A DNA stretch of 64,000 nucleotides from an uncultured Planctomycetales bacterium (GCA_964474085.1 CAYYRJ010000002.1:6110-70109); one strand, 5' to 3'; positions 8,791-58,630 are shown, counted from the first letter of the stretch. Translations and numbers: made by a program. Notes: generated by a model not told the origin, from the sequence alone.

Positions 8791-8797
8791 CAGCTAA

Positions 8798-8870
8798 CAA
8801 CAAAATTCGTGCTTTACATCCGACGCCAAGTTTGGTCAAATACGGGATTTTTAACGTGCTGGTGCCTTTG
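8798..8870 (+). promoter_or_regulatory. promoter module copy 1 (TTTACA-17nt-TCAAAT) upstream of giant gene 1; near-duplicate of module at 15097
   Basis: aacaaaattcgtgctttacatccgacgccaagtttggtcaaatacg... shares about 45 of 49 leading nt with 15097-15146; -35 TTTACA at 8813-8818, 17-nt spacer, -10-like TCAAAT 8836-8841. Confidence 0.4.
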
Positions 8871-9060
8871 AAAGCTAGACTAGAAATTTCTGTCGTCGAG
8901 GGACAGTAAAATTTCCTTGCTGAGAGTCAATTCATGTAGTATTCTTTAGCTGTGTCCTAACCCATCAAAAGTTCTTGATTCAACTTTCTCAACCCGTATA
9001 TTTTCGTTATTTTGTGAGTCCAAAACGATGTTTATTGGCTCGTGGTCAACTGTGTTTGTT

Positions 9061-9110
9061 GTCATCCTCGTTGTGTTTATTGTCATCCCCGCGAAAGCGG
9101 GGATCCATTT
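9061..9110 (+). repeat. GNRA-hairpin palindromic repeat units in 5' leader of giant gene 1
   Basis: tgtcatcctcg...TGTCATCCCCGCGAAAGCGGGGATCCA immediately before ATG 9111; same unit recurs at 9781 and 26784. Confidence 0.6.
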
Positions 9111-12100
9111 ATGAATACAAAACATAAAAATTTATTTCGCAAAGGCGTTAGCACCCTGATTCTGCTGTGTTTTTTAAGCGGACAGGTCTTTTCGCCGTCG
9201 ATTGTTTCGGCACAAAGTGTCCTTAATCTGCCCATGCCCGGAGCGATGGTCGGCATCAGCCCCAGCTACGTTCCAATTGCCATTAAAGGCCTCAAAGTTT
9301 ATCCTGATAATCCTTTTCGTTTTGACTTTATCCTCGACACCGGCAACTCCCGACTTGAAGGCCAGAAACTCCAAAACGAAACTAATCTTTTAATCAAATA
9401 CTTCCTCGCCGCATTAACTGTTCCCGATGACGATCAATGGGTCAATCTTTCGCCTTATGAAAAAGACCGCGTGATCCCTAAAGAATTTGGGGTGACCGAA
9501 ATGGGCCGCGATTTGTTGGCCCAGGATTATCTGCTTAAGCAATTGACCGCATCATTGATTTATCCGGAACATGAATTAGGCAAGAAATTCTGGGACCGGG
9601 TAAATCAGAAGGCTTATGAAAAGTACGGCGACACAAAGGTCCCGATGAGCACATTCAATAAAGTGTGGATCATGCCCGACCATGCCAAGGTTTATGAAAG
9701 CGGGAGTGTCGCTTTTATCACCGAGAGTCATTTGAAGGTGATGTTGGAAAGTGATTATGTAGCATTGGCTACCCAGCAAATGTCATCCCCGCATGCTTTA
9801 AGCGGGGATCCATTATTAAAAATGGATTCCCGCTTCCGCGGGAATGACAAAGGAGAGCAAACAAACGCATTAGGTTCCCAAATCCTTCGCGAAATCGTCC
9901 TGCCGGAGATCGAAAAAGAAATCAATGAAGGCAAGAATTTTACCAAGCTGCGTCAAATTTATCATTCCATGATCATGGCTGCGTGGTTTAAGCGCAAACT
10001 ACAAGGAGGAATGCTGAGCAAGATTTATGTTGGTGCTAATAAAGTGGCGGGCGTCGATGTTGAAGACAAAGACGTTAAACAAAAAATTTACGACCAGTAT
10101 ATCGTTGCGTTCAAGAGGGGTGTTTATAACTATATCAAAGAAGAAATCGACCCCGTCACTCAAGAAAACACACCACGCAAATATTTTTCCGGCGGGGTCG
10201 TGGCAGGGAAAGCCGTGGCGTATACAACGGTCATTGAAATCGCAAGTTCACCACAGCAATTAAACACCGTTGTCGCTAGCAGCACCACTGGCAATTTAAT
10301 TACGGCTTTTTCGACGTTGGAGCCAACATCCGCTTCCAGTTCTTTGGATGATAAGCGTATCAAAAGAATGCTGGAACTTTCCAAGAGTAAAGATTCTTGG
10401 GACTGGGTTTCTGACGAGTGGGAAATTAGCGAACTCATCTACTCCCCAGGAGGGATTCAGAAGTCCGGTATAATTGGTTCCAACCGGCAACCGATTGCAA
10501 CTGACGAATTCGGAAATCGTCCACACTGGGTTTATATCCTTTACAATTCGCAAACTGACAAAACCGTCTATGTCGGACCCGATGATGTCAAAGCCCTTTT
10601 TGGGAAACGTGATCGATTGGAAACTATCGATCAACTGCGCGCGGAAAAAGAAGCGGAAATTAAGGCCAACAGTGCACGGGTAAAGATAATCGCTGCGCTT
10701 CGACAGCTCTTTGGCGAAACAGAGGGCACAAAGCAACTAGTGTCCGAATTGGCCGGTGATATTGAAAAACCCGGCGATCGCCATATCGAGCTTATTGAAT
10801 CCTCAGAGCAAGAATACGAAGAAATCTGGAAGAATTTTCAATTGCCGGATGTAGCGCTCCAGAGATTCCTAGAAATATTTTATGATGTAAGCAAAGCCGC
10901 CAAAGAGGCCAAAAGATGGGAAAAACTGATTTACCTGTCCGTAGATGACCAAAAGCAGGTTTCCAAAGTGCTCGCCGGCATTAAAGATGGAAAAACTTTG
11001 ACAATTGAGGATATCCGTTTATTGATCAAAGTCCACAAAGTTATCTTGGATTTAAAAAACAGTCTCAAAAAAGAAGCCTTAGTTTGGGCCAGGCGCGGAA
11101 CACAGAAATCTGACGAGCATGTCAATCCAAGGCGGCCCGCTTATCAAGCCAATATTTGGGTCGCATCCTGGCTGGCCGCTGCGAGTCTGACTCATCCACT
11201 AATTTTAGACGTGGGAGCAAATTCAAGCGTCCTGTGGTCAACATTAAAAGGCTTTTCCCCGGAGTTGGCAGATGATGTTGTTGACCTCGAATACGATAAA
11301 GATATTTATGAAGTTGCTCCGAATCCCTTAAAAATTCGCGCTGATATCAGCCGCCTCACGGATGGGATCGAGAGTTCCGATGAAACAACCAAAGAACTGA
11401 TTACAACGCCTCACAGCTTCGATATTCTAACTGTTAACTTTGTTTTAGACCAGCTTGAACCCGCCGATGTCCGAGGCGCTTTAATCGCTTTTGAACATTT
11501 GCTTAAATTGGCTTCCGATCATCCGCGGCTAATTATTTCCATGCCTAAGGGGTCGCCGTTAAAAGGTTCTCGTTTTCATGCCGTTTTGCAAAGACTTGGC
11601 TATAAAACCATTGTTGAAGGCGCGAATTTGAGCAATCAGTTAACAACTGCTGCCAAAGAAAGAATCAGCCAAGAAACAGGAGGCAATGAATATTTGCGCA
11701 CGATTGAAGCGACCTTGACCGAAAAAGTTTTTCACGTTGGGGTTTATGAAAAAACCAGAGACGTTGCCGCTAGCGAATTTGATCAGATCGATCTTTCGGA
11801 TCTTGAAATCCGTAACGGCGACAGCAGGCAATCAAACGGTAACGGAAACGGTAACGGTTTTGATTACCGCTTTACGCCTGACACAGTTGATCTTAACGAT
11901 CTATTTGCCTCGCTCAAGCCGGAAGATTTTCTAACTAAATCCGTAGAAATTGTGACGCTAAATGAATTAAGCACAAACCCACAGTATGCGGCGTTCTATA
12001 AAAATTTAGATGTCTTATTATGGCTCAAGGATATGATTACGAATAGGCCTCAAGTTTTAGAAGCCATCCCACAATTGCGCACCTTAAAGCGCAGTTGGGA

Positions 12101-13904
12101 ATCCGCCGCCAGGGCCAAGGCTTCGATGGATGAAGGAGCTGCTTTTATCCAGGCGGATTTTGTCCGGGATATCATGTGGGCGATGGACAGAACAATATTG
12201 GTTTTAGATCAGGTCGCAGCTATGTCGCCGGATGTCTTTGAACACTTAACCCGCCAAAGAGAAGAGGTTAAAACAGCATGGGATTTTGATAACCGGTTTA
12301 ACGTCGATTTTGACCAAGCCCGGCAGGCGTTCATAAGAAATCTAGAAAAACAGAAATATTCCCTTGAGAACATCTACGACATATACCAGATAATTTACGC
12401 CGAAGCTCTTGGACTTGTAGCTGCCCTTGAACAACCTAAAGCTGTTGTAGAGAATAAGCCATATCAAAAACCGGCTAACCCAAAATTCCTCAATGAGGCT
12501 CTCGGTATTAAAAGTTATGCTGACCCCAAAATTGAGGAACAAATAAAACAAACGGCCGCCCGACTCAAAGAACAAAACGGACGGATGGGAACAGTCAGCG
12601 AGATCGCAAAAGCAATGGACGTCGATGTCCTTTTGCTAAATATGCATCTTAAATTCTTTTATCGCAACGATACTCAATATGTAGCATCATTGAATAATTT
12701 AGGGATGGAGCCGGATGACATTCCTTCAAATAAAATGGCACGACGCAAACTTGTGAGTGAAACAGCGATAAGAATTCTTGAAAAATATGGTTATCTTCCC
12801 ACACCGAAAATGGTTGAACGCGTTCTTGGGTTACGGAATGGAACGCTCAACCGATGGCGAACCAAGGGAGGAATGTTGGAGGAACAAGAAGACTGGGGGA
12901 CATTAGGTCTTTTTGCTTACTATGATCGCACTGATTTCGACTACCACACCATCCCCATCGAATCCCGGCTTGCCGCCGTGCGATATTTAGCCAATATAAT
13001 CCGCACCGATCCAAATCCAAAGCCGCTCATTAAACTATTTTTTGATTATTATCATATCCCACTTCATTCAGCAGCTAGGCTTATGAAATCATTATTTGAA
13101 GACGGTTATACCCTTGATGCGCTGGGGATCGACCCAAAGTTCTATAATCATGCTGAATACTTTAAGCCGCAAAACGCTGCATATACGCTACGCATTTTTC
13201 ATAATAAAGATTACCCTGTCGATAAAAGAGAGCAGGCCATAAAGACAATTATTGGAAACTTGGAAAACCGCGGGATTAAGCCGACCTACAGCGCCGTTCT
13301 AAAAGAAATGAATCTTGATATACCGAATTTCTTGAAATTTATTGCTCCTATTCTTCCAGCGGGAGATAGTTATTATGTAAAATTCGGTATCGAAAATGGT
13401 AGCGTCCCCACAGGTTATGACGAGGCGGCTTATCAAAGACTAGAAAAAACTGTGTCTGCCCTGAACTCCCAAAATATTCCGCTAACATGGCCTAATGTTA
13501 AAAAATGGGTTTTTGAGCATTACCCCGCTACTGAGCTGCACGACGGCTGGCTGCCCGGGCCTATCCGACACGATGAGACCGCAAAAAGAAAGGACGCGCT
13601 GGGAATTGCCGACGGTGAACAAATACCGATCGCCAGTTCCAGTTTAAGTCAAGCAGAAATATCACCTGCGACAAAAACCAGAATGGAAAACAATCTCGGC
13701 GGTATCGACATGAATTCAAAGGCTTTAGATTTGCAAACAGAAGGAGAAGGGATCAAGTTCGACATGCCGTTTGACCCGACACAGTTACAAAACATCAAAA
13801 TCGAAGGTTTCACACCGGTGATTTTACGTATCCTTCCAACCAATTTGCCGCTATTACGCGATCTTAAAGAAAATAAAAAAGAAATAGAAGTTAGTAGCTT
13901 ATAA
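9111..13904 (+). CDS. giant secreted protein 1 (about 1597 aa) with conserved N-module and C-module shared with giants 2 and 3; contains methyltransferase-like segment and GNGNGNG repeat
   Basis: Signal-peptide-like start MNTKHKNLFRKGVSTLILLCFLSGQVFSPSIVSAQS; N-module YFLAALTVPDDDQWVNLSPYEKDRVIPKEFGVTEMGRDLLAQDYLLKQLTASL...VWIMPDHAKVYESG shared with ORFs at 55413 and 58661; the 23 codons upstream of 9111 in the tracker ORF are repeat translation (CHPRESGDP). Confidence 0.8.
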   Translation: MNTKHKNLFRKGVSTLILLCFLSGQVFSPSIVSAQSVLNLPMPGAMVGISPSYVPIAIKGLKVYPDNPFRFDFILDTGNSRLEGQKLQNETNLLIKYFLAALTVPDDDQWVNLSPYEKDRVIPKEFGVTEMGRDLLAQDYLLKQLTASLIYPEHELGKKFWDRVNQKAYEKYGDTKVPMSTFNKVWIMPDHAKVYESGSVAFITESHLKVMLESDYVALATQQMSSPHALSGDPLLKMDSRFRGNDKGEQTNALGSQILREIVLPEIEKEINEGKNFTKLRQIYHSMIMAAWFKRKLQGGMLSKIYVGANKVAGVDVEDKDVKQKIYDQYIVAFKRGVYNYIKEEIDPVTQENTPRKYFSGGVVAGKAVAYTTVIEIASSPQQLNTVVASSTTGNLITAFSTLEPTSASSSLDDKRIKRMLELSKSKDSWDWVSDEWEISELIYSPGGIQKSGIIGSNRQPIATDEFGNRPHWVYILYNSQTDKTVYVGPDDVKALFGKRDRLETIDQLRAEKEAEIKANSARVKIIAALRQLFGETEGTKQLVSELAGDIEKPGDRHIELIESSEQEYEEIWKNFQLPDVALQRFLEIFYDVSKAAKEAKRWEKLIYLSVDDQKQVSKVLAGIKDGKTLTIEDIRLLIKVHKVILDLKNSLKKEALVWARRGTQKSDEHVNPRRPAYQANIWVASWLAAASLTHPLILDVGANSSVLWSTLKGFSPELADDVVDLEYDKDIYEVAPNPLKIRADISRLTDGIESSDETTKELITTPHSFDILTVNFVLDQLEPADVRGALIAFEHLLKLASDHPRLIISMPKGSPLKGSRFHAVLQRLGYKTIVEGANLSNQLTTAAKERISQETGGNEYLRTIEATLTEKVFHVGVYEKTRDVAASEFDQIDLSDLEIRNGDSRQSNGNGNGNGFDYRFTPDTVDLNDLFASLKPEDFLTKSVEIVTLNELSTNPQYAAFYKNLDVLLWLKDMITNRPQVLEAIPQLRTLKRSWESAARAKASMDEGAAFIQADFVRDIMWAMDRTILVLDQVAAMSPDVFEHLTRQREEVKTAWDFDNRFNVDFDQARQAFIRNLEKQKYSLENIYDIYQIIYAEALGLVAALEQPKAVVENKPYQKPANPKFLNEALGIKSYADPKIEEQIKQTAARLKEQNGRMGTVSEIAKAMDVDVLLLNMHLKFFYRNDTQYVASLNNLGMEPDDIPSNKMARRKLVSETAIRILEKYGYLPTPKMVERVLGLRNGTLNRWRTKGGMLEEQEDWGTLGLFAYYDRTDFDYHTIPIESRLAAVRYLANIIRTDPNPKPLIKLFFDYYHIPLHSAARLMKSLFEDGYTLDALGIDPKFYNHAEYFKPQNAAYTLRIFHNKDYPVDKREQAIKTIIGNLENRGIKPTYSAVLKEMNLDIPNFLKFIAPILPAGDSYYVKFGIENGSVPTGYDEAAYQRLEKTVSALNSQNIPLTWPNVKKWVFEHYPATELHDGWLPGPIRHDETAKRKDALGIADGEQIPIASSSLSQAEISPATKTRMENNLGGIDMNSKALDLQTEGEGIKFDMPFDPTQLQNIKIEGFTPVILRILPTNLPLLRDLKENKKEIEVSSL
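9781..9849 (+). repeat. 69-bp composite palindromic element inserted in-frame in giant gene 1
   Basis: TGTCATCCCCGC-atgctttaa-GCGGGGATCCA ttattaaaaa TGGATTCCCGC-ttcc-GCGGGAATGACA; translated in frame as MSSPHALSGDPLLKMDSRFRGND; 69 nt = 23 codons, no stop. Confidence 0.7.
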
Positions 13905-13954
13905 TCGTTTTGATGTTGTTCTCTAACCCACAGCATTTATAGGAGAATTTAAAG

Positions 13955-14344
13955 TTGCGACCCTTTAACATTATTGGATATGTGCTTTTAGCCATCGCAA
14001 TGCTTCTGGTTTCATTTGCATTATATTTTTATCTCACAGAAAGGATCATGCCCGATCCAGAGGGATTCGGTTTGGTGTTTACGATCTTTTGTTTACCGCC
14101 CGGATTTATATTCTTGATCGTGGGGTTATGCTTGATTCCGAACAAAGCTATGTTTCTTAAGTTGTTTGGCGTTGGATTTTTATTGTTCTCGGCATTTTAT
14201 TATTCAGAAGTTTACTTGTCAGCGCAATTGCCACCGAGAAACGATGTTCTTTATTTAAGCACCGAATTTATTAACCCGTTGTTAGGGCTAATCCTTTTGG
14301 GATTAGGTTTTAAATTTGAGCACAAGCAATACGATTCAAACTAA
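13955..14344 (+). CDS. small integral membrane protein, hypothetical (TTG start)
   Basis: 129 aa, four hydrophobic helices; AGGAGAA RBS 7 nt before TTG. Confidence 0.45.
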   Translation: MRPFNIIGYVLLAIAMLLVSFALYFYLTERIMPDPEGFGLVFTIFCLPPGFIFLIVGLCLIPNKAMFLKLFGVGFLLFSAFYYSEVYLSAQLPPRNDVLYLSTEFINPLLGLILLGLGFKFEHKQYDSN

Positions 14345-14389
14345 GTGCAACCAAGCAGTTGAGAGTAAAATACCGGAATTTAAAGAAAA

Positions 14390-14418
14390 TTGACAATCAT
14401 TTCCAAATCAGGTATGCT
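14390..14418 (+). promoter_or_regulatory. sigma70-like promoter TTGACA-17nt-TATGCT for toxin-antitoxin operon, with overlapping ATGCTT..AAGCAT inverted repeat
   Basis: ttgacaatcatttccaaatcaggtatgct at 14390-14418; downstream tatgctttaagcaaaagtaagcat inverted repeat is a candidate autoregulatory operator. Confidence 0.5.
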
Positions 14419-14465
14419 TTAAGCAAAAGTAAGCATGTAAGGAAATAGGAAAAATGGAGGTTGTC

Positions 14466-14729
14466 ATGACGATATTAGAAACTGCAAAAATCACCACCAA
14501 GGGGCAAATCACGATCCCCAATCGTATCCGCAAATTGTTGCACCTCAAAGAAGGCTCTGCGGTTGCTTTTGGCGTCAGCAAAGAGGGTGTTCTTCTTCTT
14601 CCTTGCGAGGTTAATGCCAAATCCCCGTATACCACTAAAGAGTGGACCAAAATCGAGAAGCTCGCCGCAGAGAAGGGTAAAACACATCAAACAACCGCCG
14701 CCGCAAAAGCCCATATTCATAGCTTATGA
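14466..14729 (+). CDS. AbrB/MazE/SpoVT-family antitoxin
   Basis: MTILETAKITTKGQITIPNRIRKLLHLKEGSAVAF swapped-hairpin AbrB motif; GGAGG 5 nt upstream of ATG 14466 (tracker start 14454 also possible); stop overlaps toxin start (ATGA). Confidence 0.75.
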   Translation: MTILETAKITTKGQITIPNRIRKLLHLKEGSAVAFGVSKEGVLLLPCEVNAKSPYTTKEWTKIEKLAAEKGKTHQTTAAAKAHIHSL

Positions 14730-15004
14730 GATTTGAATTTAAGCCTTCCTTTGATCGGTCTGTTAAGAGATTTCATGGCCCCGAGAAAGAAGAAATCAAA
14801 ACAGTGGCTGTCCAGCTAATCAATATGCTTTCTCAAGATCGGGAGATTTATAAGGGAATTGGATTAAAGCGGCTTAAAGGCAATTTTTGGGAAGTCCGCA
14901 AGGGTCTAAAAACAAGAATCTTGTTCCGTTGGGAAGGCGACCTCGTCGAGTTCATTCTTGCTGGGAATCACGACGATGTTAAAAAATTTCTTAAGAGCAG
15001 TTAG
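14726..15004 (+). CDS. RelE/ParE-family type II toxin
   Basis: 92 aa; KGNFWEVRKGLKTRILFRWEGDLVEFILAGNHDDV matches RelE/ParE core (WExRxxxxxRIxF...GxHD); translationally coupled to upstream antitoxin. Confidence 0.7.
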   Translation: MRFEFKPSFDRSVKRFHGPEKEEIKTVAVQLINMLSQDREIYKGIGLKRLKGNFWEVRKGLKTRILFRWEGDLVEFILAGNHDDVKKFLKSS

Positions 15005-15096
15005 CTTGTGGCCTTGTTGGCGCAACGGGTTTAAGCTCAAAGGGAGCTTACGAGACTTCTAAAATTAGGACATTTTTAATTTGGTTGGACAAGAAC

Positions 15097-15165
15097 AAAA
15101 TTCGTGCTTTACATCCGACGCTAAGTTTGGTATAAATACGAAGCTTTTGGCGTGCTGGCGCACTG
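15097..15165 (+). promoter_or_regulatory. promoter module copy 2 (TTTACA-17nt-TATAAAT) driving the tRNA operon
   Basis: -35 TTTACA 15111-15116, 17-nt spacer, -10 TATAAA 15134-15139; near-identical to 8798-8845. Confidence 0.55.
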
Positions 15166-15460
15166 TTTTCTCTAGAGCAAAAGGAGGGAAACAGTACTGG
15201 CAGATCTTTCTGAATGTAGAACTGATAGAAATAATGGTAATCTGCTGGCGTCCCTAAAAAAGGGACTGGAAATTTTTAAATTGCTGGCGCCCTGCTTTTT
15301 CCATAAAAAATTCTTAAAGAAAGCAGGACTGGCAAGCCATTCTAAAGATAAATTTTGTAATTTCAGTGGAAGCTTGCTGGCGTAGCTCAGTCCCGCTACG
15401 CGGGACAAAAACGCTTTAAGCAAAAATTTCCAAGGTAGCAACATTTTCTTTGAAGCAAAA
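15154..15460 (+). repeat. cluster of CTGGCG-hairpin-CTGGCA leader repeats plus a truncated tRNA-Thr 5' fragment
   Basis: units at 15154-15203, 15244-15269, 15283-15338 each begin (T)GCTGGCG, contain an internal inverted repeat and end ACTGGCA/G; 15376-15406 GCTGGCGTAGCTCAGTCCCGCTACGCGGGAC = first 15 nt of tRNA-Thr then a hairpin. Confidence 0.5.
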
Positions 15461-15465
15461 CGTGT

Positions 15466-15538
15466 GCTGGCGTAGCTCAGTTGGTAGAGCAACTGATTTG
15501 TAATCAGTAGGCCGGGGGTTCAATTCCTCTCGCCAGCT
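15466..15538 (+). tRNA. tRNA-Thr (anticodon UGU)
   Basis: 73 nt; acceptor GCTGGCG/CGCCAGC, D-arm GCTC-AGTTGGTA-GAGC, anticodon arm ACTGA-TTTGTAA-TCAGT, T-loop TTCAATT; no encoded CCA. Confidence 0.85.
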
Positions 15539-15592
15539 TAAAGTTAAATTTCAATCTTTCTCAAGTAGGACTGGTAATTTTGATGTAATTAT

Positions 15593-15674
15593 GGGCAGAT
15601 ACCCAAGTGGTCAACGGGGGCAGACTGTAAATCTGCTGGCTTTGCCTTCGTAGGTTCGAATCCTGCTCTGCCCA
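15593..15674 (+). tRNA. tRNA-Tyr (anticodon GUA), long variable arm
   Basis: 82 nt; acceptor GGGCAGA/TCTGCCC, anticodon arm GCAGA-CTGTAAA-TCTGC, variable arm TGGCTTTGCCTTCG, T-arm AGG-TTCGAAT-CCT; close to E. coli tyrU architecture. Confidence 0.85.
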
Positions 15675-15690
15675 TTTTGTCTTCGCGGGA

Positions 15691-15770
15691 GTCCCCAAAA
15701 GGGGACTGGCGATTTTTCTGAAATTAATAAATGAAATCGCTGGCGTAGTTCAGTCCCGAAAACGGAACAC
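15691..15770 (+). repeat. post-tRNA-Tyr hairpin (GTCCCC-aaaa-GGGGAC-TGGCG-ttttt) and second truncated tRNA-Thr 5' fragment
   Basis: 15739-15768 GCTGGCGTAGTTCAGTCCCGAAAACGGAAC; the following 60-nt spacer (gcgctttgagcaaaag...ttaaagcaaaa) is homologous to the spacer preceding tRNA-Thr (15407-15465). Confidence 0.5.
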
Positions 15771-15827
15771 AAGCGCTTTGAGCAAAAGGTTCTAAGAAAC
15801 AAACCTTTACTTTAAAGCAAAATTTCT

Positions 15828-15898
15828 GCGGGAGTAGTTCAGTGGTAGAACGCTAGCCTTCCAAGCTGGTCACGAGGGTTCGATTCCCTTCTCCCGCT
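15828..15898 (+). tRNA. tRNA-Gly (anticodon UCC)
   Basis: 71 nt; acceptor GCGGGAG/CTCCCGC, anticodon arm CTAGC-CTTCCAA-GCTGG, T-loop TTCGATT. Confidence 0.85.
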
Positions 15899-15933
15899 TT
15901 AAATGTTCGCCTCCCAACATCTTTGACTTTTTC

Positions 15934-25104: not shown

Positions 25105-26673
25105 ATGGCAAAACCCATCACCATTTACGACACAACCCTTCGCGACGGTTCCCAGACCGAAGGGATATCGTTTACGGTCAATGACAAACTTAAAATCACC
25201 GAAAAGCTTGATAGCTTAGGCGTTCATTACATCGAAGGCGGCTGGCCGGGATCCAACCCCAAGGACCGCGATTATTTTCTTGCTGTCAAAGAAAAAAAAC
25301 TTAAGCACGCTAAAATTGCGGCCTTCGGTTCAACCCGACGGGCGAATGTCAAACCCGAGGATGATGCTAACCTGCAGGAGCTTATCAAGTCCGAAACTCC
25401 GACGGTAACGATCTTCGGCAAAAGTTGGGATTTGCATGTCACTGATATTATCAAGACGACTTTAGACGAAAATCTTAAAATGATTTTTGAGTCTGTGGAC
25501 TTTTTAAAGAAAAAGAAAAAGGAAGTCTTTTACGACGCGGAACATTTCTTTGACGGATACAAGCGCAATCCGCAGTATGCGCTTAAAACGATTTTGGCCG
25601 CGCAAAAAGCCAAAGCCGATTGCATCATCCTCTGTGACACCAACGGCGGGACACTGCCGCAAGAGGTGAGCAAAATCGTCGCGCAAGTTAAAAAGAAAAT
25701 CAAAACGCCCTTAGGCATTCACACGCACAATGACCTTGATCTGGCTGTGGCCAATTCGCTTGCGGCAATTGAAATGGGCGCTGTGCAAGTGCAGGGGACT
25801 TTTAACGGTTTAGGCGAGCGCTGCGGCAATGCGGACTTAGGAACCGTCGTCGGGATTTTGCATACCAAATTAAACCGCAAATCGCTTGCTGACAACAAGA
25901 TCAAACTTTTGACCGAAACATCCTATTTCATCAGCGAAATCAGTAATGTCAAACTCGCGGATAATCACGCTTTTGTCGGGCACTCAGCGTTTGCGCACAA
26001 AGGGGGAGTGCATATTGACGCAATGCTCAAAAACCCGCTGGCCTATGAGCATATTGAGCCGTCGATCGTCGGTAATCACCGGCGTTTTGTCACCTCAGAA
26101 TTAGCCGGCAAAATGCCGATTATTTTGCGCGCCAAAAAGATGAATATCGATCTCGACAAAAAGTCCCCGCAGTCGCAGGAACTTTTAAAAAAATTGCAAG
26201 AAATGGAACACGCCGGGTACCAATTTGAAGCGGCCGATGCGTCGTTTGAATTATTTATGAAACGCGCGCTCAATAAATACACGCCGTTTTTTACGCTCGA
26301 AAGCTTTAAAGTCACCACCGAAAAACGTTTTGACGGCCGCACGTTTGCGGAAGGTTCGGTACGTTTAAATGTTAAGGGCCACGAAGAATTTTGTGCGGCC
26401 ACAGGCGACGGGCCGGTAGACGCGCTGGATAAGGCCGCACGCCAAGCGCTGTCTAAATTTTATCCTACCTTAGTCCAAATGCATCTAACGGATTACAAGG
26501 TGCGCGTCCTGGATTCTAAAGAAGGCACAGCAGCACGCGTGAGGGTCTTAATCGAGTCCCAAGATGAGAGCGATTCGTGGACGACGATGGGAGTCCATGA
26601 AAACATCATCGAAGCCTCCTGGGAAGCCTTGACGGATTCGATTGAGTATAAATTGTTGAAGGATAAAAAATAA
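25105..26673 (+). CDS. cimA: (R)-citramalate synthase / 2-isopropylmalate synthase family enzyme with C-terminal LeuA-dimer regulatory domain
   Basis: PITIYDTTLRDGSQTEGISFTVNDKLKITEKLDSLGVHYIEGGWPGSNPKD DRE-TIM barrel motifs; 522 aa typical of CimA/LeuA type 2. Confidence 0.8.
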   Translation: MAKPITIYDTTLRDGSQTEGISFTVNDKLKITEKLDSLGVHYIEGGWPGSNPKDRDYFLAVKEKKLKHAKIAAFGSTRRANVKPEDDANLQELIKSETPTVTIFGKSWDLHVTDIIKTTLDENLKMIFESVDFLKKKKKEVFYDAEHFFDGYKRNPQYALKTILAAQKAKADCIILCDTNGGTLPQEVSKIVAQVKKKIKTPLGIHTHNDLDLAVANSLAAIEMGAVQVQGTFNGLGERCGNADLGTVVGILHTKLNRKSLADNKIKLLTETSYFISEISNVKLADNHAFVGHSAFAHKGGVHIDAMLKNPLAYEHIEPSIVGNHRRFVTSELAGKMPIILRAKKMNIDLDKKSPQSQELLKKLQEMEHAGYQFEAADASFELFMKRALNKYTPFFTLESFKVTTEKRFDGRTFAEGSVRLNVKGHEEFCAATGDGPVDALDKAARQALSKFYPTLVQMHLTDYKVRVLDSKEGTAARVRVLIESQDESDSWTTMGVHENIIEASWEALTDSIEYKLLKDKK

Positions 26674-26692
26674 TTAAACCTGACCATTTTAT

Positions 26693-26923
26693 CCCCCTCT
26701 TAAGTTACAGACTGGGTCAGATGCAGGGGCATTCTGAAAAGTGGATTCCCGCTTTCGCGGGAATGACAAAAGAGGTAGTGTCATCCCTGCGAAAGCAGGG
26801 ATCCAGGGTTTTAGTGGCACATAATTAAAAAATTTTATGTTCTCGACGACAAGCTATAATTCATCGTCGACAAATATCATTAAATCTCTCCCCATCTGAC
26901 CCAGCCTGAAGTTAAAGAGGGGG
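26693..26923. mobile_element. MITE-like non-autonomous element with 31-bp imperfect terminal inverted repeats carrying GNRA-hairpin repeat units
   Basis: Left end CCCCCTCTTAAGTTACAGACTGGGTCAGATG vs right end CATCTGACCCAGCCTGAAGTTAAAGAGGGGG (about 26 of 31 complementary); interior holds TGGATTCCCGC-tttc-GCGGGAATGACA and TGTCATCCCTGC-gaaa-GCAGGGATCCA plus TCGACGA...TCGTCGA; no ORF. Confidence 0.55.
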
Positions 26924-26953
26924 CAGCGGGGGAGTTCTAAAAAAATAAAATTT

Positions 26954-27454
26954 ATGTCCGAACTTTCTCCTTTTAGAAGGAAAAAAGTAATGAGCCAAAA
27001 GAAACCACTATCTGTTTTTTTAAGTGCAATTGAATTAATGCTTCTCGGCGGAGGTGGAGTATTTTTATATTCATCAGGTCTATTTCAAATACTGTCAAAT
27101 GACGTGGTTAAAGATCCAAAGTTTTTCATGTTTCTTATTGAATTCGCAGTAAGAATCATTTTTTATCTTACGTTCATTATTACTGGAATATTTCTTTTTA
27201 ATTTCAAGAAAAAGGCCCAAAAGACAGCCATTGTTTTATTAGTACTTCAATCTCTTGTCTTTTTTCATTTCTTTTCAGAATATCAATTTGCTGGTTCATG
27301 TCGAGAATTTGCAGACTGTTCAACAAAATATTACCAATTCTTTAATTTATCTAAATTACTTTTTTCGCTACCTTATTTATTGCCCGTCTTAGTTTTAACA
27401 CTTTTGCCAATCTATTACTTAACTCGACCAAAAATAAAAGAACTTTTCCAATAA
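26954..27454 (+). CDS. small membrane protein, hypothetical; first codons duplicate valS start
   Basis: 166 aa with four hydrophobic helices; ATGTCCGAACTTTCTCC at 26954 vs ATGTCTGAACTATCTCC at valS 27457; alternative start ATG 26993 (MSQKKPLSVF). Confidence 0.4.
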   Translation: MSELSPFRRKKVMSQKKPLSVFLSAIELMLLGGGGVFLYSSGLFQILSNDVVKDPKFFMFLIEFAVRIIFYLTFIITGIFLFNFKKKAQKTAIVLLVLQSLVFFHFFSEYQFAGSCREFADCSTKYYQFFNLSKLLFSLPYLLPVLVLTLLPIYYLTRPKIKELFQ

Positions 27455-27456
27455 CT

Positions 27457-30246
27457 ATGTCTGAACTATCTCCACGTTTTGATTTTGCTGCTGTCGAGGC
27501 CAAATGGTGTAAGTACTGGGAAGATAACAAAACTTTCCACGCTAAACCAAACCCCGACAAAAAGCCATACACGATCGTGATTCCACCGCCGAATGTCACG
27601 GGTATTTTGCACATGGGCCATGGCCTGAATAATACTTTGCAGGATATTATGGCGCGTTACAAGCGAATGAACGGTTTTGAAACCTGCTGGTTAGCTGGCA
27701 CCGATCACGCCGGGATTGCAACCCAAAACGTCGTCGAAAAACAACTGGCCAAAGAGGGAAAAACGCGCCACGATATCGGCCGAGAAGAGATGCTCAAACG
27801 TCTCTGGCAATGGAAAGAGCAATACGGCGGCACGATCATCAATCAATTAAAAAAACTGGGCAGCTCGTGCGACTGGCAGCGTTTGCGTTTTACGATGGAC
27901 GAAGGTTACAGCGAAGCGGTCAAAGAAGTTTTTATCCGACTTTACGAAAAAGATTTGATTTACAGAGGTAAACGAATCATCAACTGGTGCCCACGCTGTC
28001 AAACAGCATTGTCCGACGAAGAAGCGGAGCATCGCGAAAAGCAGGGCGCTCTGTATCACATCAAGTATCCCTTAAAAGATTTTCCTGACCAACATATCAT
28101 CGTCGCAACTACACGACCTGAGACGATGTTGGGCGACACAGCGGTTGCGGTCAATCCAACCGATGAACGCTATAAAAGTTTGATTGGCAAAATTCTTATT
28201 CTGCCAATCGTCAACCGCGAAATAAAAATCATCGCCGATGAGCTGGTTGATATCAGCTTTGGCAGCGGGGCTGTCAAAGTCACCCCAGCGCATGATCCCA
28301 ATGACTTTACGATGGGAACACGCCACAAGTTGGATTTCATAAATATTTTGGAACCCGACGCGAAACTCAATACCAATGCCGGTGAATTTGCCGGCATGGA
28401 CCGTTTTGAAGCCCGTGAAGCGATTATCGAAACTCTCAAGAACTTAAAACTTCTCGATAAAGTGGAGCCGCACACCCACGCGGTTGGCCATTGCTATCGA
28501 TGCAATACCGTCGTCGAACCCTATTTGTCTTGGCAGTGGTTTGTGAAGATGCAGCCATTAGCCGCACCAGCACTCAAAGCTGTCAAAGAGGGGACGATCA
28601 AATTTTATCCTGACCGCTGGACAAAAGTTTATTTAAACTGGATGGAAAACATTCAAGACTGGTGCATTTCGCGGCAAATCTGGTGGGGCCATCAAATCCC
28701 AGTTTGGTACGATGGGCATCTTCATGTTGCCGCAAAAGACAAGGAAGAAGCACTCATCAAGATTAAAGCAAAATATTTAGCGCAAGCAAAACTGCTCGGA
28801 AAATCAACTATTCTGTCTGATGATGAAATATTAAAAAGTCTCAAACAAGATGAAGATGTTTTAGACACATGGTTCTCGTCGTGGCTTTGGCCGTTTGCTA
28901 CCTTCGGCTGGCCCGCCCAAATCCCGGCAGCTTCGACGGCTTTCGATTTGACCCTTCAAAATCGAGGGACTACTACTCATCAGGCGGGCAAGCCCACTAA
29001 CGTCCAGCGTCCAGCGTCTAACGATCTAGACTACTTCTATCCGACTAATTCACTGTTTACCGCTTCCGAAATTATTTTCTTCTGGGTCGCGCGGATGATC
29101 ATGGCCGGCTACGAATTTATGGGAGAGGCGCCATTTAAAGACGTTTACATTCACGGCACGGTACGCGACGCTAAAGGACGCAAAATGTCCAAATCGCTGG
29201 GCAATGCGCTTGATCCGCTGGAAATCATCAATGAATATGGGGCTGATGCGCTGCGCTTTAGCCTCATCATAAACTCCGGCCAAGACCTTTTTATTTCCAA
29301 AGAAAAATTTGAAGGCGGCCGCAACTTTGCCAACAAAATCTGGAACGCTTCGCGCTTAGTATTGCTCAACACAAAACCAGAAAACAAAACTAACCCCCAA
29401 CCCCTAAACCCTAATCACCCTGACCTTGCGTCCCAATGGATCATTTCCAAATTTTATTCGACAGTCGCTTTAGTCAGTGATGCGATCGAAAACTACCGCT
29501 TCTCGGAAGCCGAAAACTTGATTTATGATTTCTTCTGGAAAAATTATTGCGACTGGTATTTGGAAATCATAAAAAATAAATTCTCCGACGATAATATCCA
29601 GCAAACAGCCTTTTTTATTCTCAAGGAATCTCTGAGGATGTTGCATCCTTTTATGCCGTTTGTCACTGAAGAGTTATGGCAAAATATTACGGGCGACACA
29701 AAACCGCTTTCCCTAGAGAGTTGGCCAGAATCCAAAAAAGAGTTCCTCAACATCGGCGCTGTTGACCAAATGGACACTCTGATCCAATTAGTCACCACGA
29801 TTCGCAACCTCAAAAGCCAATTAAATATTAAACCGCAAGAGCAAATCGATTGTCATTTAAGCGCCTCTGACCCTTCTGGAAAAATGATTATCAATAACAA
29901 CCAGGAAACAATACGCTTTCTTTTAAAAATCAAAAACTTAAACATCCACAACGCACTTCCTGATCTTAAGAATGCCGTCTGTGGTGTTATTAGCGTGACG
30001 GGTGGCCAACCGATCAAAGTCACAATTCCTTTAGACGGACTTGTGGACACGGCGAAAGCAAAAGAAAAAATTCAAAAAGAAATCACCCAGAAAGAAAATT
30101 CGGCATCAGCAATTACGCAACGCTTAAACAATGAAGGGTTTGTGAGCAAAGCTCCGGCGGATGTCATCGAAAAAGAACGCGCACGCGCGATGGCTTTAAG
30201 CGTAGAGGCCAAAGAACTCCAAAGCCTTTTAAAAAATTTGACATGA
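27457..30246 (+). CDS. valS: valyl-tRNA synthetase
   Basis: HIGH-class motif ILHMGHGLNNTLQD, KMSKS motif RKMSKSLGN, editing domain, C-terminal coiled coil; 929 aa. Confidence 0.95.
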   Translation: MSELSPRFDFAAVEAKWCKYWEDNKTFHAKPNPDKKPYTIVIPPPNVTGILHMGHGLNNTLQDIMARYKRMNGFETCWLAGTDHAGIATQNVVEKQLAKEGKTRHDIGREEMLKRLWQWKEQYGGTIINQLKKLGSSCDWQRLRFTMDEGYSEAVKEVFIRLYEKDLIYRGKRIINWCPRCQTALSDEEAEHREKQGALYHIKYPLKDFPDQHIIVATTRPETMLGDTAVAVNPTDERYKSLIGKILILPIVNREIKIIADELVDISFGSGAVKVTPAHDPNDFTMGTRHKLDFINILEPDAKLNTNAGEFAGMDRFEAREAIIETLKNLKLLDKVEPHTHAVGHCYRCNTVVEPYLSWQWFVKMQPLAAPALKAVKEGTIKFYPDRWTKVYLNWMENIQDWCISRQIWWGHQIPVWYDGHLHVAAKDKEEALIKIKAKYLAQAKLLGKSTILSDDEILKSLKQDEDVLDTWFSSWLWPFATFGWPAQIPAASTAFDLTLQNRGTTTHQAGKPTNVQRPASNDLDYFYPTNSLFTASEIIFFWVARMIMAGYEFMGEAPFKDVYIHGTVRDAKGRKMSKSLGNALDPLEIINEYGADALRFSLIINSGQDLFISKEKFEGGRNFANKIWNASRLVLLNTKPENKTNPQPLNPNHPDLASQWIISKFYSTVALVSDAIENYRFSEAENLIYDFFWKNYCDWYLEIIKNKFSDDNIQQTAFFILKESLRMLHPFMPFVTEELWQNITGDTKPLSLESWPESKKEFLNIGAVDQMDTLIQLVTTIRNLKSQLNIKPQEQIDCHLSASDPSGKMIINNNQETIRFLLKIKNLNIHNALPDLKNAVCGVISVTGGQPIKVTIPLDGLVDTAKAKEKIQKEITQKENSASAITQRLNNEGFVSKAPADVIEKERARAMALSVEAKELQSLLKNLT

Positions 30247-39387: not shown

Positions 39388-40410
39388 ATGAAAGAAAAAA
39401 ATCTGCAAATACGTAACAGCACAGCGGAATTCCTGATCTTCACAGGTCAGTCGGGCGATAAAAGCATTGAGGCGCGGTATGAAGACGAAACGATCTGGCT
39501 GACACAAAAATTAATGGCTGAATTGTTTGATGTCGCTATCCCAACAATTAACGAGCATCTCAAGAACGTCTTTTCAAGCAAAGAGGTCGACGAGAAGTCA
39601 GGTATTAGGAAATTCCTAACAACTGCCGCGGACGGCAAAAAATACCATACGAATTTCTATAATCTGGACACGATCATTTCAGTCGGATATCGGGTGAATT
39701 CTTTACGTGCCACTCAATTCCGGCAATGGGCAACCCGTATTTTGAAAGACTTCGCCATCAAAGGGTATGTGCTGGATAAGAAACGGCTGGAGAATGGCGC
39801 TTTTCTTGGTGAGGATTACTACGAACGGGTATTGGAAGAAATCCGTGAAATACGCTTGAGTGAACGGCGTTTTTATCAAAAAATTACGGATATTTACTCG
39901 ACGAGCATGGATTATAACCCTCAGTCTTCTATCACCCAAGAATTTTTTGCAAAAGTGCAAAATAAATTACATTTCGCGATCCACGGATATACGGCCGCAG
40001 AATTGATTGTGCAGCGGGCGGACAGCCAAAAAAAACACATGGGATTAACGTCATGGGAAAAAAGCCCCACTGGTAAGGTATTAAAGAGTGATGTTAGCGT
40101 GGCAAAGAATTATCTGACCAAAGACGAAGTAGAATCGCTGGGACGCATTGTTAACGCGTACCTGGATTTGGCTGAAGACCGGGCGCGTCGAAGAATGCCA
40201 ATGACAATGGAAGATTGGTCAAAGCGTCTGGACATGTTCTTGCAGGTCGCAGACAGAGATATTTTAAAAGACAGCGGGAAGATAACGGCTCAGATTGCCA
40301 AAGAACATGCTGAAAATGAGTTTGAAAAATACCGTATTGTTCAGGATCGTTTATTTCAAAATGATTTTGATCGTGAAATAAAATATCTTAAAAATAAAAA
40401 AAACAAATAA
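39388..40410 (+). CDS. RhuM-family virulence/accessory protein
   Basis: WLTQKLMAELFDV...TINEHLKNVFSSKEVDEKSGIRKFLTTAADGKKYHTNFYNLDTIISVGYRVNSLRATQFRQWATRILKDFAIKGY is a close match to the RhuM family core. Confidence 0.75.
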   Translation: MKEKNLQIRNSTAEFLIFTGQSGDKSIEARYEDETIWLTQKLMAELFDVAIPTINEHLKNVFSSKEVDEKSGIRKFLTTAADGKKYHTNFYNLDTIISVGYRVNSLRATQFRQWATRILKDFAIKGYVLDKKRLENGAFLGEDYYERVLEEIREIRLSERRFYQKITDIYSTSMDYNPQSSITQEFFAKVQNKLHFAIHGYTAAELIVQRADSQKKHMGLTSWEKSPTGKVLKSDVSVAKNYLTKDEVESLGRIVNAYLDLAEDRARRRMPMTMEDWSKRLDMFLQVADRDILKDSGKITAQIAKEHAENEFEKYRIVQDRLFQNDFDREIKYLKNKKNK

Positions 40411-46844: not shown

Positions 46845-48590
46845 TTATTTTGTTTTTCGCGGCAATTTTTCCAAAGCTCGAATCAAAACATCGACTTCTT
46901 CTCTGGTATTATAAAAAGCTAAAGACGGTCTGACTGTTGTGTCTAAACCAAATCGCCGCAATGAAGGTTGCGCGCAATGATGACCCGCGCGCACGGCAAT
47001 CCCATGTTCGTCTAAATACTTTCCGATTTCTACCGGCGTATACCCTTCCCTAACAAATGATAAAACGCCAGCCTTGTTTACCGCTGTGCCTATCAAACGC
47101 AATCCGGGAATAGTTTCCAAGCCCGCCGTCGCGTACTCTAAAAGCTCATGCTCATACGCCGCGATAGCCGCTAAACCGGTGCGCATCAAATATTCAACAG
47201 CAGCACCTAAACCAACAACGCCGGCAATATTTGGCGTGCCAGCTTCAAATTTATTGGGCAGACCTTCAAAAGTTGTTTTTGTAAACGTAACTTCTTTAAT
47301 CATATTGCCCCCGCCCTGCCACGGCGGCATACTTTCCAATAAAGCCTTTTTCCCGTACAAAACACCAATTCCCGTCGGGCCAAAAATTTTATGTCCTGAA
47401 AATGTAAAGAAATCTGCGTCCATCGCCTGAACATTGACCGGCATGTGCGGGGTCGATTGCGCGCCGTCAACGAGAACAGGGACGCCATGCGCGTGAGACA
47501 AAGCAATGATCTCTTCAACAGGATTAACCGTGCCCAAAGCATTAGCAACTTGTGTAATAGAAACGAACTTTGTCCGCGAACTAAAAAGCGCAGCAAATTG
47601 TTCTAAAAGCAACTCCCCTTTATCATTGATTGGCGCAACCCGAATGACAGCCCCCGTCTGTTTCGCAAGCATTTGCCACGGGACAATATTCGCGTGATGT
47701 TCCATGGTCGTAATAATAATTTCGTCGCCTGCGCCAATATTTTCGCGGCCATAGGATTGAGCAACAAGATTAATAGCTTCCGTCGTGCCGCGCACAAAAA
47801 TAATCTCTTGCGGCAAAGCCGCCCCCAAGAATTGACGGACTTTTTCTCTGGCTCCCTCATAAAGGTCAGTCGCCCTCGCTGCTAAAGCGTGCGCAGCGCG
47901 GTGAATATTAGAATTGTCGCGACCATAAAAACGGGATGTCGCTTCAATAACACATAAGGGCTTATGCGTTGTTGCGGCATTATCTAACCAAATGAGCGGT
48001 TTACCATTAACGCTTTGGTGTAAAGCCGGAAAATCGCGGCGCACCGACTGAACATCAAAATTCGTTTTAGCCACCGGCGGCTTAAGCGGCCATTGCGTCG
48101 AGGAAACAACTGGGTCAACATCTTCTTGATTAAGAAAATACAATGAATGCGCATCCTGTTTTTCGGCTTTAGTCTTAAAAGTTTCGCTGTGGCGCGAAAC
48201 TTCGTGCGTCCCTTCTTCTTCAAGACGCGGTTCGCCGAATTGATACGAGTCAACTGCGCCGGGCGAATATTCGCCGGAGTCAACAGATTTCGCATCAGAA
48301 AATTCTTCAGCAGCCGGATGAACCGGCGGCGCATAGGCCTCGGTTTTAGCCGGATAAACACCAGCCAGACCATTATCTTTTGCCACTGACCTTCCATCAA
48401 CACTCTGGGTGCTAATGGGTGCCGAGACATTCATAAATTCTGAATAAAACTCATTTGCCAAACGCGTGATCAATTTTGTGTCAAACGGATCCTCTCTGGA
48501 CGCCAGAGCTTGTGATTGATTCGGATTAGGATTTGTCATAGCTATGATAATTGTTGATCTCAACATTTTGAAGTTGCGCAATCGCGTCAT
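46845..48590 (-). CDS. SufS/CsdA-type cysteine desulfurase with about 190-aa intrinsically disordered N-terminal extension (candidate encapsulin cargo-loading domain)
   Basis: PLP-lysine motif SGHKIFGPTGIGVLYGK, TTMEHHANIVPWQ, active-site Cys RAGHHCAQPSLRRFGL; N-terminal 190 aa is Pro/Ser/Glu/Ala-rich low complexity; start ambiguous (48590, 48566 or 48539), all overlapping the upstream shell gene. Confidence 0.85.
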   Translation of the reverse strand: MTRLRNFKMLRSTIIIAMTNPNPNQSQALASREDPFDTKLITRLANEFYSEFMNVSAPISTQSVDGRSVAKDNGLAGVYPAKTEAYAPPVHPAAEEFSDAKSVDSGEYSPGAVDSYQFGEPRLEEEGTHEVSRHSETFKTKAEKQDAHSLYFLNQEDVDPVVSSTQWPLKPPVAKTNFDVQSVRRDFPALHQSVNGKPLIWLDNAATTHKPLCVIEATSRFYGRDNSNIHRAAHALAARATDLYEGAREKVRQFLGAALPQEIIFVRGTTEAINLVAQSYGRENIGAGDEIIITTMEHHANIVPWQMLAKQTGAVIRVAPINDKGELLLEQFAALFSSRTKFVSITQVANALGTVNPVEEIIALSHAHGVPVLVDGAQSTPHMPVNVQAMDADFFTFSGHKIFGPTGIGVLYGKKALLESMPPWQGGGNMIKEVTFTKTTFEGLPNKFEAGTPNIAGVVGLGAAVEYLMRTGLAAIAAYEHELLEYATAGLETIPGLRLIGTAVNKAGVLSFVREGYTPVEIGKYLDEHGIAVRAGHHCAQPSLRRFGLDTTVRPSLAFYNTREEVDVLIRALEKLPRKTK

Positions 48591-58400: not shown

Positions 58401-58402
58401 AT

Positions 58403-58630
58403 TTAAAGAGTGTCCCCGCGAACCAACAAACGGCGTTTTCGGGTTCCAACTGTCTTTCGTTTCCGATAACGGGCGATCCAAGCCATCGCGTATCTCTTAA
58501 GCCACTGCGCAGATCCCTGCTCAAAACTTATTTCATGTCCGGCCTTTTCGCTTTCGATCCAAATATAGCGGTCGATCTCGGCTAAGACTTTTTTGTTTTT
58601 CAATAACTGTGAATAATAAATACTGGCCAT
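58403..58630 (-). CDS. small hypothetical protein (75 aa) between giant genes 3 and 2
   Basis: MASIYYSQLLKNKKVLAEIDRYIWIESEKAGHEISFEQGSAQWLKRYAMAWIARYRKRK; compact, non-low-complexity; stop 2 nt before the preferred start of giant gene 2. Confidence 0.4.
   Translation of the reverse strand: MASIYYSQLLKNKKVLAEIDRYIWIESEKAGHEISFEQGSAQWLKRYAMAWIARYRKRKTVGTRKRRLLVRGDTL

Follow-up and report, generated by a model that had tools for sequence, protein, structure and literature searches.

The segment at positions 26708-26908 of a 64,000-nucleotide stretch of bacterial DNA (GCA_964474085.1, CAYYRJ010000002.1:6110-70109; the whole stretch is hereafter called the window) appears, by homology, to be a non-coding repeat element of 201 bp lying downstream of the citramalate synthase gene cimA. 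We hold it somewhat more probable than otherwise that this segment is one copy of a non-autonomous mosaic element that inserted into a hairpin loop after cimA and is moved by an enzyme supplied in trans. The comparisons described below show an insertion polymorphism at this site, dispersal to unrelated loci, homology that ends at 16-bp inverted ends, and the identity of the interior hairpins with the Neisseria Transformation Sequence (NTS). A preliminary description of the region had placed here a 231-bp element resembling a miniature inverted-repeat transposable element (MITE), with 31-bp terminal inverted repeats at 26693-26723 and 26893-26923. Its inverted ends are retained, but its termini appear to be misplaced, as homology with other copies stops at 26708 and 26908 and the terminal repeats measure 16 bp.

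The two 31-nt strings were found exactly at these coordinates, and the inverted repeat that they form is real. The arms are complementary at 26 of 31 positions and lie 169 nt apart, whereas, when the 280-nt spacer distal to cimA was Markov-shuffled 200 times, the best 31-nt inverted repeats matched at a mean of 17.8 and a maximum of 22 positions. Folding of the region gave −106 kcal/mol as RNA (z = −7.6 against shuffles) and −53 kcal/mol as DNA (z = −8.9). Of the five mismatches between the arms, four (arm positions 10, 12, 13 and 15) are located inside one 6-nt block, and this block is AAGTTA, which is repeated perfectly and in direct orientation on both sides; the 31-nt arms are therefore composite. 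Without the outer stem and AAGTTA, the arms reduce to a 16-bp inverted repeat (CAGACTGGGTCAGATG and CATCTGACCCAGCCTG) matching at 15 of 16 positions, and the outer stem itself (CCCCCTCTT and AAGAGGGGG) comprises 9 bp, all of which pair. No second copy of either arm was detected in the window when 16- and 18-mers were searched with up to three mismatches and the 31-mer with up to eight. As described previously, the interior contains no open reading frame (ORF) of substance: only spurious ORFs of 20-43 aa, corresponding to hairpin-encoded peptides, cross the element. The small palindrome TCGACGA-n14-TCGTCGA was likewise located.

Further copies were recovered at unrelated loci, so that the case named in the preliminary description as refuting it, an element without other copies, does not apply. 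A full-length copy is present in three public contigs (L018, L019 and L020; L018 2019-2241), between a gene for a 230-aa protein and an aminotransferase gene, and is identical to 26708-26908 at 176 of 201 positions (87.6%), with one additional 22-nt indel. Alignments between the flanks of this copy and those of the window copy scored within the range of shuffles, and a flank resemblance that seemed suggestive by eye (GGGGGAG...TATGTC) was rejected for this reason. A variant at the L018 locus is found on L017, a metagenome contig of 1.7 kb; its BLASTN alignment to the window spans 156 nt at 85% identity and starts exactly at 26908. From the 230-aa gene up to and including one of the two interior hairpins (unit b), L017 is identical to L018, and the two then diverge completely (L017 1213-1300, L018 2174-2261). 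Past unit b, L017 continues with a third NTS unit and acpP, and L018 with the other end of the element and the aminotransferase gene, a divergence that reflects either a genome rearrangement at the NTS unit or a chimeric metagenome contig.

Additional copies were identified through spurious proteins in public databases. Translation of the longest open stretch of the element, on the minus strand, led to P0122 (58 aa), a spurious ORF that is colinear, without indels, with window positions 26706-26879, includes the peptides of both hairpins and terminates at the element's left end; one arm of the small palindrome appears changed in this copy. A profile search of 1.84 billion representatives returned 342 matches, mostly generic arrays of hairpin-encoded peptides (WIPAFAGMT, SFPRKRES). 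The element-specific matches were P0126 (117 aa), which is colinear with the element, and P0136, whose cluster look-up led to P0274. Both P0122 and P0126 diverge from the window just past the left end. After the shared stretch ...SDP(V/I/A)(C/S), the window reads NLRGG and a stop, L018 reads AARGKF, P0122 ends in a stop, and P0126 reads GFNSGNK. The four copies differ immediately after the shared stretch, and homology therefore ends at the 16-bp repeat and not at the 31-nt arm.

At the DNA level, the copies occupy at least two distinct loci (the window, and L018/L019/L020), and P0122 and P0126 are known as ORFs only. The two assemblies from which L018 and L019 derive also contain contigs of the window strain (L016 and L001); coverage is similar (2.6x and 3.6x) and the tetranucleotide correlation is r = 0.95. 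The copy on L018 and L019 probably resides in the same genome as the window copy. Exact scans with the pattern CCCTCTTN10CTGGGTCAGATG returned one match among genome contigs and three among metagenome contigs, all by chance and located in unrelated, mostly high-GC coding DNA; the arms of the window itself were not returned either, which places the source genome outside both collections. An element-specific 30-mer had no match in viral contigs.

The second line of evidence comes from the cimA-valS locus in relatives, where valS encodes valine--tRNA ligase. By its CimA homologues, the organism falls within Candidatus Omnitrophota. Three short public contigs (L001, L012 and L016) are 100% identical to the window and therefore represent the same strain. 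The element is absent from Omnitrophota relatives with 86-95% identical CimA: the spacer between cimA and valS measures 62 nt in L006, L007 and L008 (CimA 92%), 64 nt in L009 and L010 (CimA 92%) and 6 nt in L011 (CimA 95%), against 280 nt in the window from cimA to the former valS start codon at 26954. Every relative with a spacer has a hairpin at that spot. In L013 (CimA 89%), the hairpin CCCCTTCTTT-n23-AAAGAAGGGG directly follows the cimA stop codon and is itself followed by AAGGGGAGTT. The window counterpart reads CCCCCTCTT ... AAAGAGGGGG CAGCGGGGGAGTT, and the window sequence AAAGAGGGGGCAGCGGGGGAGTT resembles AAAGAAGGGGAAGGGGAGTT of L013. In L006 and L009, a hairpin occupies the same post-cimA position, with stem sequences that differ from the window. 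Because relatives without the element carry a hairpin there, the outer 9 bp of the arms can be attributed to the stem of an older local hairpin.

When 26708-26914 is deleted, the resulting empty site, CCCCCTCTT-AAGTTA-AAGAGGGGG, forms a hairpin of −16.3 kcal/mol. The reconstructed 79-nt spacer aligned with that of L009 at a score of 15 (shuffles: mean 5.5, sd 1.9, maximum 11.5) and with that of L013 at 12.5, equal to the shuffle maximum; the score against L006 was 7 and not significant. AAGTTA is aligned with AATTAA, the hairpin loop of L009. The arrangement would correspond to the classic picture of an element that enters a hairpin loop and duplicates a 6-bp target.

From these comparisons, we propose the following history. 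Before insertion, a short 9-bp hairpin with the loop AAGTTA would have stood just downstream of cimA. An element with 16-bp ends (CAGRCTGGGTCAGATG), built of two inverted NTS hairpins about 10 nt apart and then a 100-nt module with the small palindrome, would have entered that loop. Duplication of the loop hexamer AAGTTA upon insertion would have converted the 9-bp hairpin into an apparent 31-nt inverted repeat. The element may move as a unit by means of an enzyme supplied in trans, the likeliest candidate being a transposase specific for the 16-bp ends that cuts its target with a 6-bp stagger. A likely side effect would be a very stable stem of about 230 nt, formed in single-stranded DNA and in the transcript running through cimA, the ORF and valS, which are co-directional.

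Several observations weigh against this reading. Of the two copies sequenced in full, only one shows the 6-bp target duplication: AAGTTA matches at 6 of 6 positions in the window, but the corresponding hexamers of L018, GCAGCA and CAAGGG, agree at 2 of 6 and share at most CA. The ends of L018 are complementary at only 10 of 16 positions, with no compensatory changes. The duplication in L018 could have been lost by decay, as the non-hairpin parts have diverged by about 16-19% (rough binomial p of about 0.07). No gene for a transposase, RAYT, integrase or GIY-YIG protein was detected in the 64-kb window by Pfam and NCBIfam searches of ORFs of at least 150 aa and a six-frame search for the GIY..YIG motif, and the cognate transposase for which the preliminary description suggested a search was thus not found in this region. 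In L017, one end is exchanged for a third NTS unit, which indicates modular reshuffling. Finally, C-rich and G-rich blocks lie just outside the 16-bp ends in both copies. These blocks could mean that hairpins are preferred as targets or that the termini are longer and degenerate; the orthology of the cimA locus with its relatives would favor the former. The label MITE-like is thus partly supported, the element being short, non-coding, dispersed and polymorphic, with inverted ends.

The interior of the element contains, as reported in the preliminary description, two hairpin units of a family also found in and next to a 1597-aa ORF of the window (giant gene 1). These units are not new, as they match the NTS/Ssn-related motif (SRM). 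The NTS, with the 28-nt consensus CGTCATTCCCGCGMAVGCGGGAATCYRG, was described as the site that SsnA, a 94-aa GIY-YIG single-strand DNA nuclease, binds and cleaves, and as an extension of the dRS3 repeat (Nat Commun 2025; PMC11893778). In the same work, SRMs were found to flank ssn genes across phyla, and the NTS-ssnA-NTS layout was noted to resemble an insertion sequence (IS) and was compared with repetitive extragenic palindromes (REP), bacterial interspersed mosaic elements (BIMEs) and IS200/IS605; Omnitrophota are not mentioned (PMC11893778). The published SRM pattern has three matches in the window (9081, 9781 and 26741) against 0.11 expected in shuffles, and the other two window units, including unit a, are near-misses. 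The units are semi-palindromic hairpins with stems of at least 8 bp, and asymmetric flanks (GTCAT...GGATCC) give them an orientation. Within the element, units a and b form an inverted doublet, 10 nt apart, with 27-nt arms that are 85% complementary. Between the window and L018 copies, the NTS units are identical at 55 of 56 positions, compared with 95 of 113 in the rest of the element and 26 of 32 in the ends. This suggests that constraint acts on the NTS units alone, for instance if they serve as sites for an Ssn nuclease, or that they are subject to gene conversion.

NTS units also occur without the 16-bp ends (searched with up to three mismatches), namely at 9081, at 9780-9851 and in L013. 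Over 72 nt, identity reaches 83% between the doublet in giant gene 1 (9780-9851) and the doublet of L017 1218-1283 (units b and c), the module that replaces the end that would bear the 16-bp repeat. Because the giant-gene doublet matches the L017 doublet and units occur without the element, the dispersing module is the hairpin unit or doublet itself, and the 201-bp element is one of its carriers. The earlier proposal that the units travel as part of a larger element is accordingly only half borne out: all four copies carry the doublet, but units are also found on their own. The related proposal that the element brought them into coding sequence is not supported, as the giant-gene doublet lacks the 16-bp ends and matches the L017 module.

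Other features of these units were observed. The doublet in giant gene 1, of about 72 nt, encodes ...MSSPHALSGDPLLKMDSRFRGNDK... A partial copy of the 5' half of the unit, TTGTCATCC, lies about 22 nt upstream of the solo unit (9055-9110), and this arrangement of a half unit and a full unit recurs in L017 and L018 (75% over 57 nt). In addition, in short-read contigs from two public data sets, position 1 of L012 (window 26778) and the end of L013 (4334-4361) coincide exactly with NTS units, which is consistent with multi-copy units or palindrome-induced assembly breaks.

The coordinates of the element, its parts and the neighboring features are listed in Table 1.

Table 1. Features of the element and of the window sequences discussed with it (positions counted from the first nucleotide of the window).
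Feature	Position	Strand	Basis or remark
Left outer-stem arm CCCCCTCTT	26693..26701	+	5' arm of the presumed older hairpin downstream of cimA
AAGTTA, left copy, candidate target-site duplication	26702..26707	+	Sequence; opposite L009 loop AATTAA
Repeat element proper, 201 bp	26708..26908	.	Homology with L017 and L018 copies, flanks non-homologous
Left terminal inverted repeat CAGACTGGGTCAGATG	26708..26723	+	15/16 complementary to 26893-26908; 13/16 identical in L018
NTS/Ssn-related-motif hairpin unit b TGTCATTCCCGCGAAAGCGGGAATCCAC	26741..26768	-	26/28 to NTS consensus; 28/28 in L018
NTS-like hairpin unit a TGTCATCCCTGCGAAAGCAGGGATCCAG	26779..26806	+	24/28 to NTS consensus by eye; 27/28 in L018
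Small palindrome TCGACGA-n14-TCGTCGA	26843..26870	.	In L018, stems kept at 7/7 and 7/7, loop at 10/14
Right terminal inverted repeat CATCTGACCCAGCCTG	26893..26908	+	Complementarity; BLASTN edge with L017; L018 alignment
AAGTTA, right copy	26909..26914	+	Read from sequence
Right outer-stem arm AAGAGGGGG	26915..26923	+	3' arm of the presumed older hairpin; resembles L013
cimA (citramalate synthase), upstream gene	25105..26673	+	TIGR00977, 746.7 bits against a cut-off of 450
AT-rich orphan ORF	26954..27454	+	166 aa from ATG 26954, 154 aa from ATG 26990
valS (valine--tRNA ligase), downstream gene	27457..30246	+	NF004349, 1187.5 bits
Solo NTS unit	9081..9108	+	2 nt before ATG 9111 of giant gene 1; no terminal repeats nearby
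NTS doublet	9780..9851	.	Inside the open frame of ORF 9111-13904 (1597 aa); without 16-bp ends

Among the alternatives, an NTS-driven mosaic comparable to the neisserial intergenic mosaic elements (NIMEs) and BIMEs is possible, although we regard it as doubtful. Here, a single-strand transposase or a GIY-YIG nuclease of the Ssn type would disperse NTS units, which would also recombine with one another; no transposase would recognize the 16-bp ends, and these ends and AAGTTA would be incidental. Such a mosaic agrees with the near-identity of the NTS units between copies (55/56, with everything else at about 84%), with the absence of a target duplication in L018, and with contigs L017 and L018, which are identical up to unit b and then carry a different module and downstream gene. 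The NTS doublet with its TTTTAAT spacer also recurs alone inside giant gene 1, the left-end sequence aligns by eye with a decayed NTS unit, and the Ssn study offers the IS-like NTS-ssnA-NTS layout and the BIME analogy (PMC11893778). However, non-NTS modules of at least 100 nt are colinear at unrelated loci, and in four copies, two known as DNA and two from ORFs, the inverted 16-mers mark exactly where homology stops. The window copy, moreover, combines a 15/16 inverted repeat with a 6/6 flanking repeat, the window contains no ssn gene, and L017, at 1.7 kb, could be a chimeric assembly at the repeat. A bolder version, which we judge quite unlikely, would make the NTS hairpins and not the 16-bp ends the active parts, with an Ssn GIY-YIG nuclease or a partner mobilizing the units through single-stranded hairpins. 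If true, NTS units, doublets and NTS-bounded blocks would be dropped into hairpin loops and, in frame, into giant genes; Ssn-NTS would constitute a new mobile system, beyond a modulator of transformation; and the near-identity of NTS units would be accounted for while the modules that they carry decay. It is also rather unlikely that the full 31-nt arms, including CCCCCTCTT, are the termini of a 231-bp element as first described. In its favor, the L018 copy is bracketed by TCCCTCT (C-rich) and AGGGGGA (G-rich), both of which pair when the fold includes the flanks, and the left flanks are identical at 10 of 20 positions. The flank alignments are, however, no better than shuffles, the right flanks are identical at only 3 of 20 positions, and the blocks are spaced differently (6 + 6 nt against 6 + 2 nt). 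The outer stem, a single loop hexamer and the downstream sequence also have counterparts in relatives that lack the element.

Two further explanations concern the locus itself. A unique local structure in the cimA-valS operon, whether a large terminator, an attenuator or a structured regulatory RNA, would suit the very stable fold and the hairpin conserved at this position in relatives, but is very improbable: copies at unrelated loci refute its uniqueness, close relatives do without the element, and the outer arms of L018 are not complementary. No terminator-like site was found in 26400-27600, where the stem is followed by CAGCGGGGGAG with no T-run, and the promoter and terminator scan revealed no plus-strand promoter in or adjoining the element. 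A possible outward promoter, TATAAT at 26855-26860, was dropped, as L018 reads GCTAAT there by eye. Searching Rfam 15 at a permissive E-value yielded no family at its gathering score; the best matches were a plant miRNA (24.9 bits against 64) and FtrB (24 against 66), a Francisella sRNA that contains an NTS-like hairpin, which explains its weak matches. A T-box leader for valS was also discarded, as Rfam returned noise alone. Given that the outer arms are not maintained in L018, that no promoter or terminator signal was seen and that no RNA family was matched, the element probably has no dedicated host function, and it may still exert a regulatory side effect. An integron-type attC site, forming a gene cassette with the AT-rich ORF that follows the element, is scarcely credible. 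It would account for an imperfect long inverted repeat beside a promoterless AT-rich orphan ORF that is missing from relatives. However, the core sites RYYYAAC and GTTRRRY are lacking, as the ends read CAGACTGG...CCAGCCTG, and the nearest GTT motif, GTTAAAG, has G where Y is required. attC sites are 57-141 bp long, a length exceeded by the 201-231 bp considered here. No integrase was detected in the window, other copies of the element are not beside such an ORF, and the orphan ORF has a junction of its own, the duplication of the valS start.

The favored reading, a mosaic element inserted into a hairpin loop and moved in trans, can be placed among known systems. As in published NTS/Ssn-related motifs, the inner units are hairpin-forming, oriented, multi-copy and enriched over shuffles; unlike these, they occur in an Omnitrophota host, with no ssn (cd10448 GIY-YIG) gene in the 64-kb window, and are contained in a larger block with inverted ends, one doublet being inside an ORF. 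Bacterial MITEs include the Correia elements of Neisseria, Nezha and RUP. The present element shares with MITEs its length of 201 bp, non-coding and AT-rich interior, inverted ends, strong fold, dispersal, polymorphism between close relatives and, in the window copy, a flanking direct repeat, but no parent IS sharing its ends is known, the duplication is present in one of two copies, and its interior consists of hairpins of a family that is also dispersed independently. Its ends show no similarity to the 26-bp repeats of Correia elements, and no TA duplication was found. With NIMEs and with BIMEs/REPINs it has in common modules bounded by short palindromic units and the swapping of modules, as between L017 and L018; to our knowledge, NIMEs and BIMEs lack defined terminal inverted repeats or target duplications. 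The inverted doublet forming a long hairpin also recalls REPINs, but the unit here is of the NTS type and not the REP of E. coli or Pseudomonas, and no RAYT (IS200/IS605-like Y1 transposase) was detected among the window ORFs.

Insertion into hairpins is known from IS1397 and ISKpn1, which target the hairpin loops of palindromic units, and from IS110/IS1111 elements, which target REPs. Similarly, the window copy appears to be inserted in the loop of a pre-existing short GC-rich hairpin, and C-rich and G-rich blocks that are complementary to each other flank the second copy as well. In contrast to the present element, those insertion sequences are autonomous with known transposases, and a loop preference here would be based on two loci and is not established statistically. 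Transposase families IS110, IS5 and IS1634 have been reported in Omnitrophota; elements of the IS1634/IS4 type produce target duplications of 5-6 bp. Rickettsia palindromic elements (RPEs) resemble the NTS doublet at 9780-9851 in lying within an ORF without breaking the frame; the likeness concerns the hairpin doublet and not the 201-bp element, and no sequence relationship to RPEs was observed. In the literature searched, no prior description was found of the hairpin-encoded peptides, of the 16-bp ends, or of MITEs or hairpin repeats in Omnitrophota.

The location given in the preliminary description, between cimA and valS, is accurate for the cimA side, but the element is not directly beside valS, as an ORF (26954/26990-27454) intervenes. 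This orphan ORF, found only in this strain, encodes a hydrophobic product and, at a GC content of 0.29-0.32, is poorer in GC than the flanks (about 0.47). Its opening 21 nt (ATGTCCGAACTTTCTCCTTTT) are a duplicate of the valS 5' end (ATGTCTGAACTATCTCCACGTTTT, at 27457), and the first six codons of valS form an in-frame fusion with the ORF; ValS aligns with its relatives from residue 1. Insertion of this ORF thus appears to have split the valS start and regenerated a start about 500 bp downstream. No family match was found for the ORF, and among 5.8 billion proteins only self-matches were returned. It is absent in L006, L009 and L011, and L014 and L015 encode a 180-aa ORF at the same position with a clearly different sequence by eye. 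The possibility that the ORF belongs to the element was rejected, since other copies occur without it and it has its own junction. A public protein of 205 aa, P0124 (GCA_020049755.1; L016 391-1008, equal to window 26837-27454), crosses the element's right end and continues into the orphan ORF by reading the TGA at 26897-26899 as Trp. It was considered as a single-base variant of the right end and rejected, as the DNA of L016 is identical to the window, which makes P0124 an annotation artefact. The cimA-valS spacer has taken two independent insertions that are missing from the closest relatives, and this double insertion is a useful strain marker.

Elsewhere in the window, several unrelated observations were made. 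Direct repeats of 41 nt (8796-8836 and 15091-15131, 95% identical) bracket the 1597-aa ORF and an ORF-poor 2-kb stretch (13905-15933), and the block of about 6.3 kb between them is possibly an insertion. A different hairpin repeat, TCTGTAGGGGCGTATTGCAATACGCCCCTACGGCA, occurs at 57725-57759 and 57869-57903, 144 nt apart and 94% identical, within a 1022-aa ORF (55413-58481, minus strand) that has no Pfam match. A gene for a type 2A encapsulin shell protein (SrpI-like, 48526-49503) adjoins a 581-aa class-V aminotransferase/cysteine desulfurase-like gene (region 46845-49503, minus strand), and a 1770-aa ORF (58661-63973, minus strand) contains serine acetyltransferase and Cys/Met-metabolism PLP enzyme domains; together, these genes suggest a sulfur-metabolism encapsulin locus. 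A gene of the RhuM family, which is often found on mobile islands, was identified at 39388-40410 (PF13310, E = 1e-109) and was the only mobile-element-associated marker seen in the window.

The kinds of components described here, NTS/Ssn-related motifs, MITEs and mosaic intergenic elements, are known, and this family and its host are new. NTS/Ssn-related repeats, which have been characterized experimentally only in Neisseria (2025), are now extended to Omnitrophota, where they are packaged in a larger repeat with MITE hallmarks and also occur inside an ORF. In practical terms, NTS units break short-read assemblies, as in L012 and L013, which end at units, and yield spurious public "hypothetical proteins" (P0122, P0126, P0136, P0274 and P0124). 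The 201-bp consensus, the 16-bp ends and the two insertion sites provide concrete sequences with which spread by an Ssn nuclease and spread by a transposase can be tested against each other.

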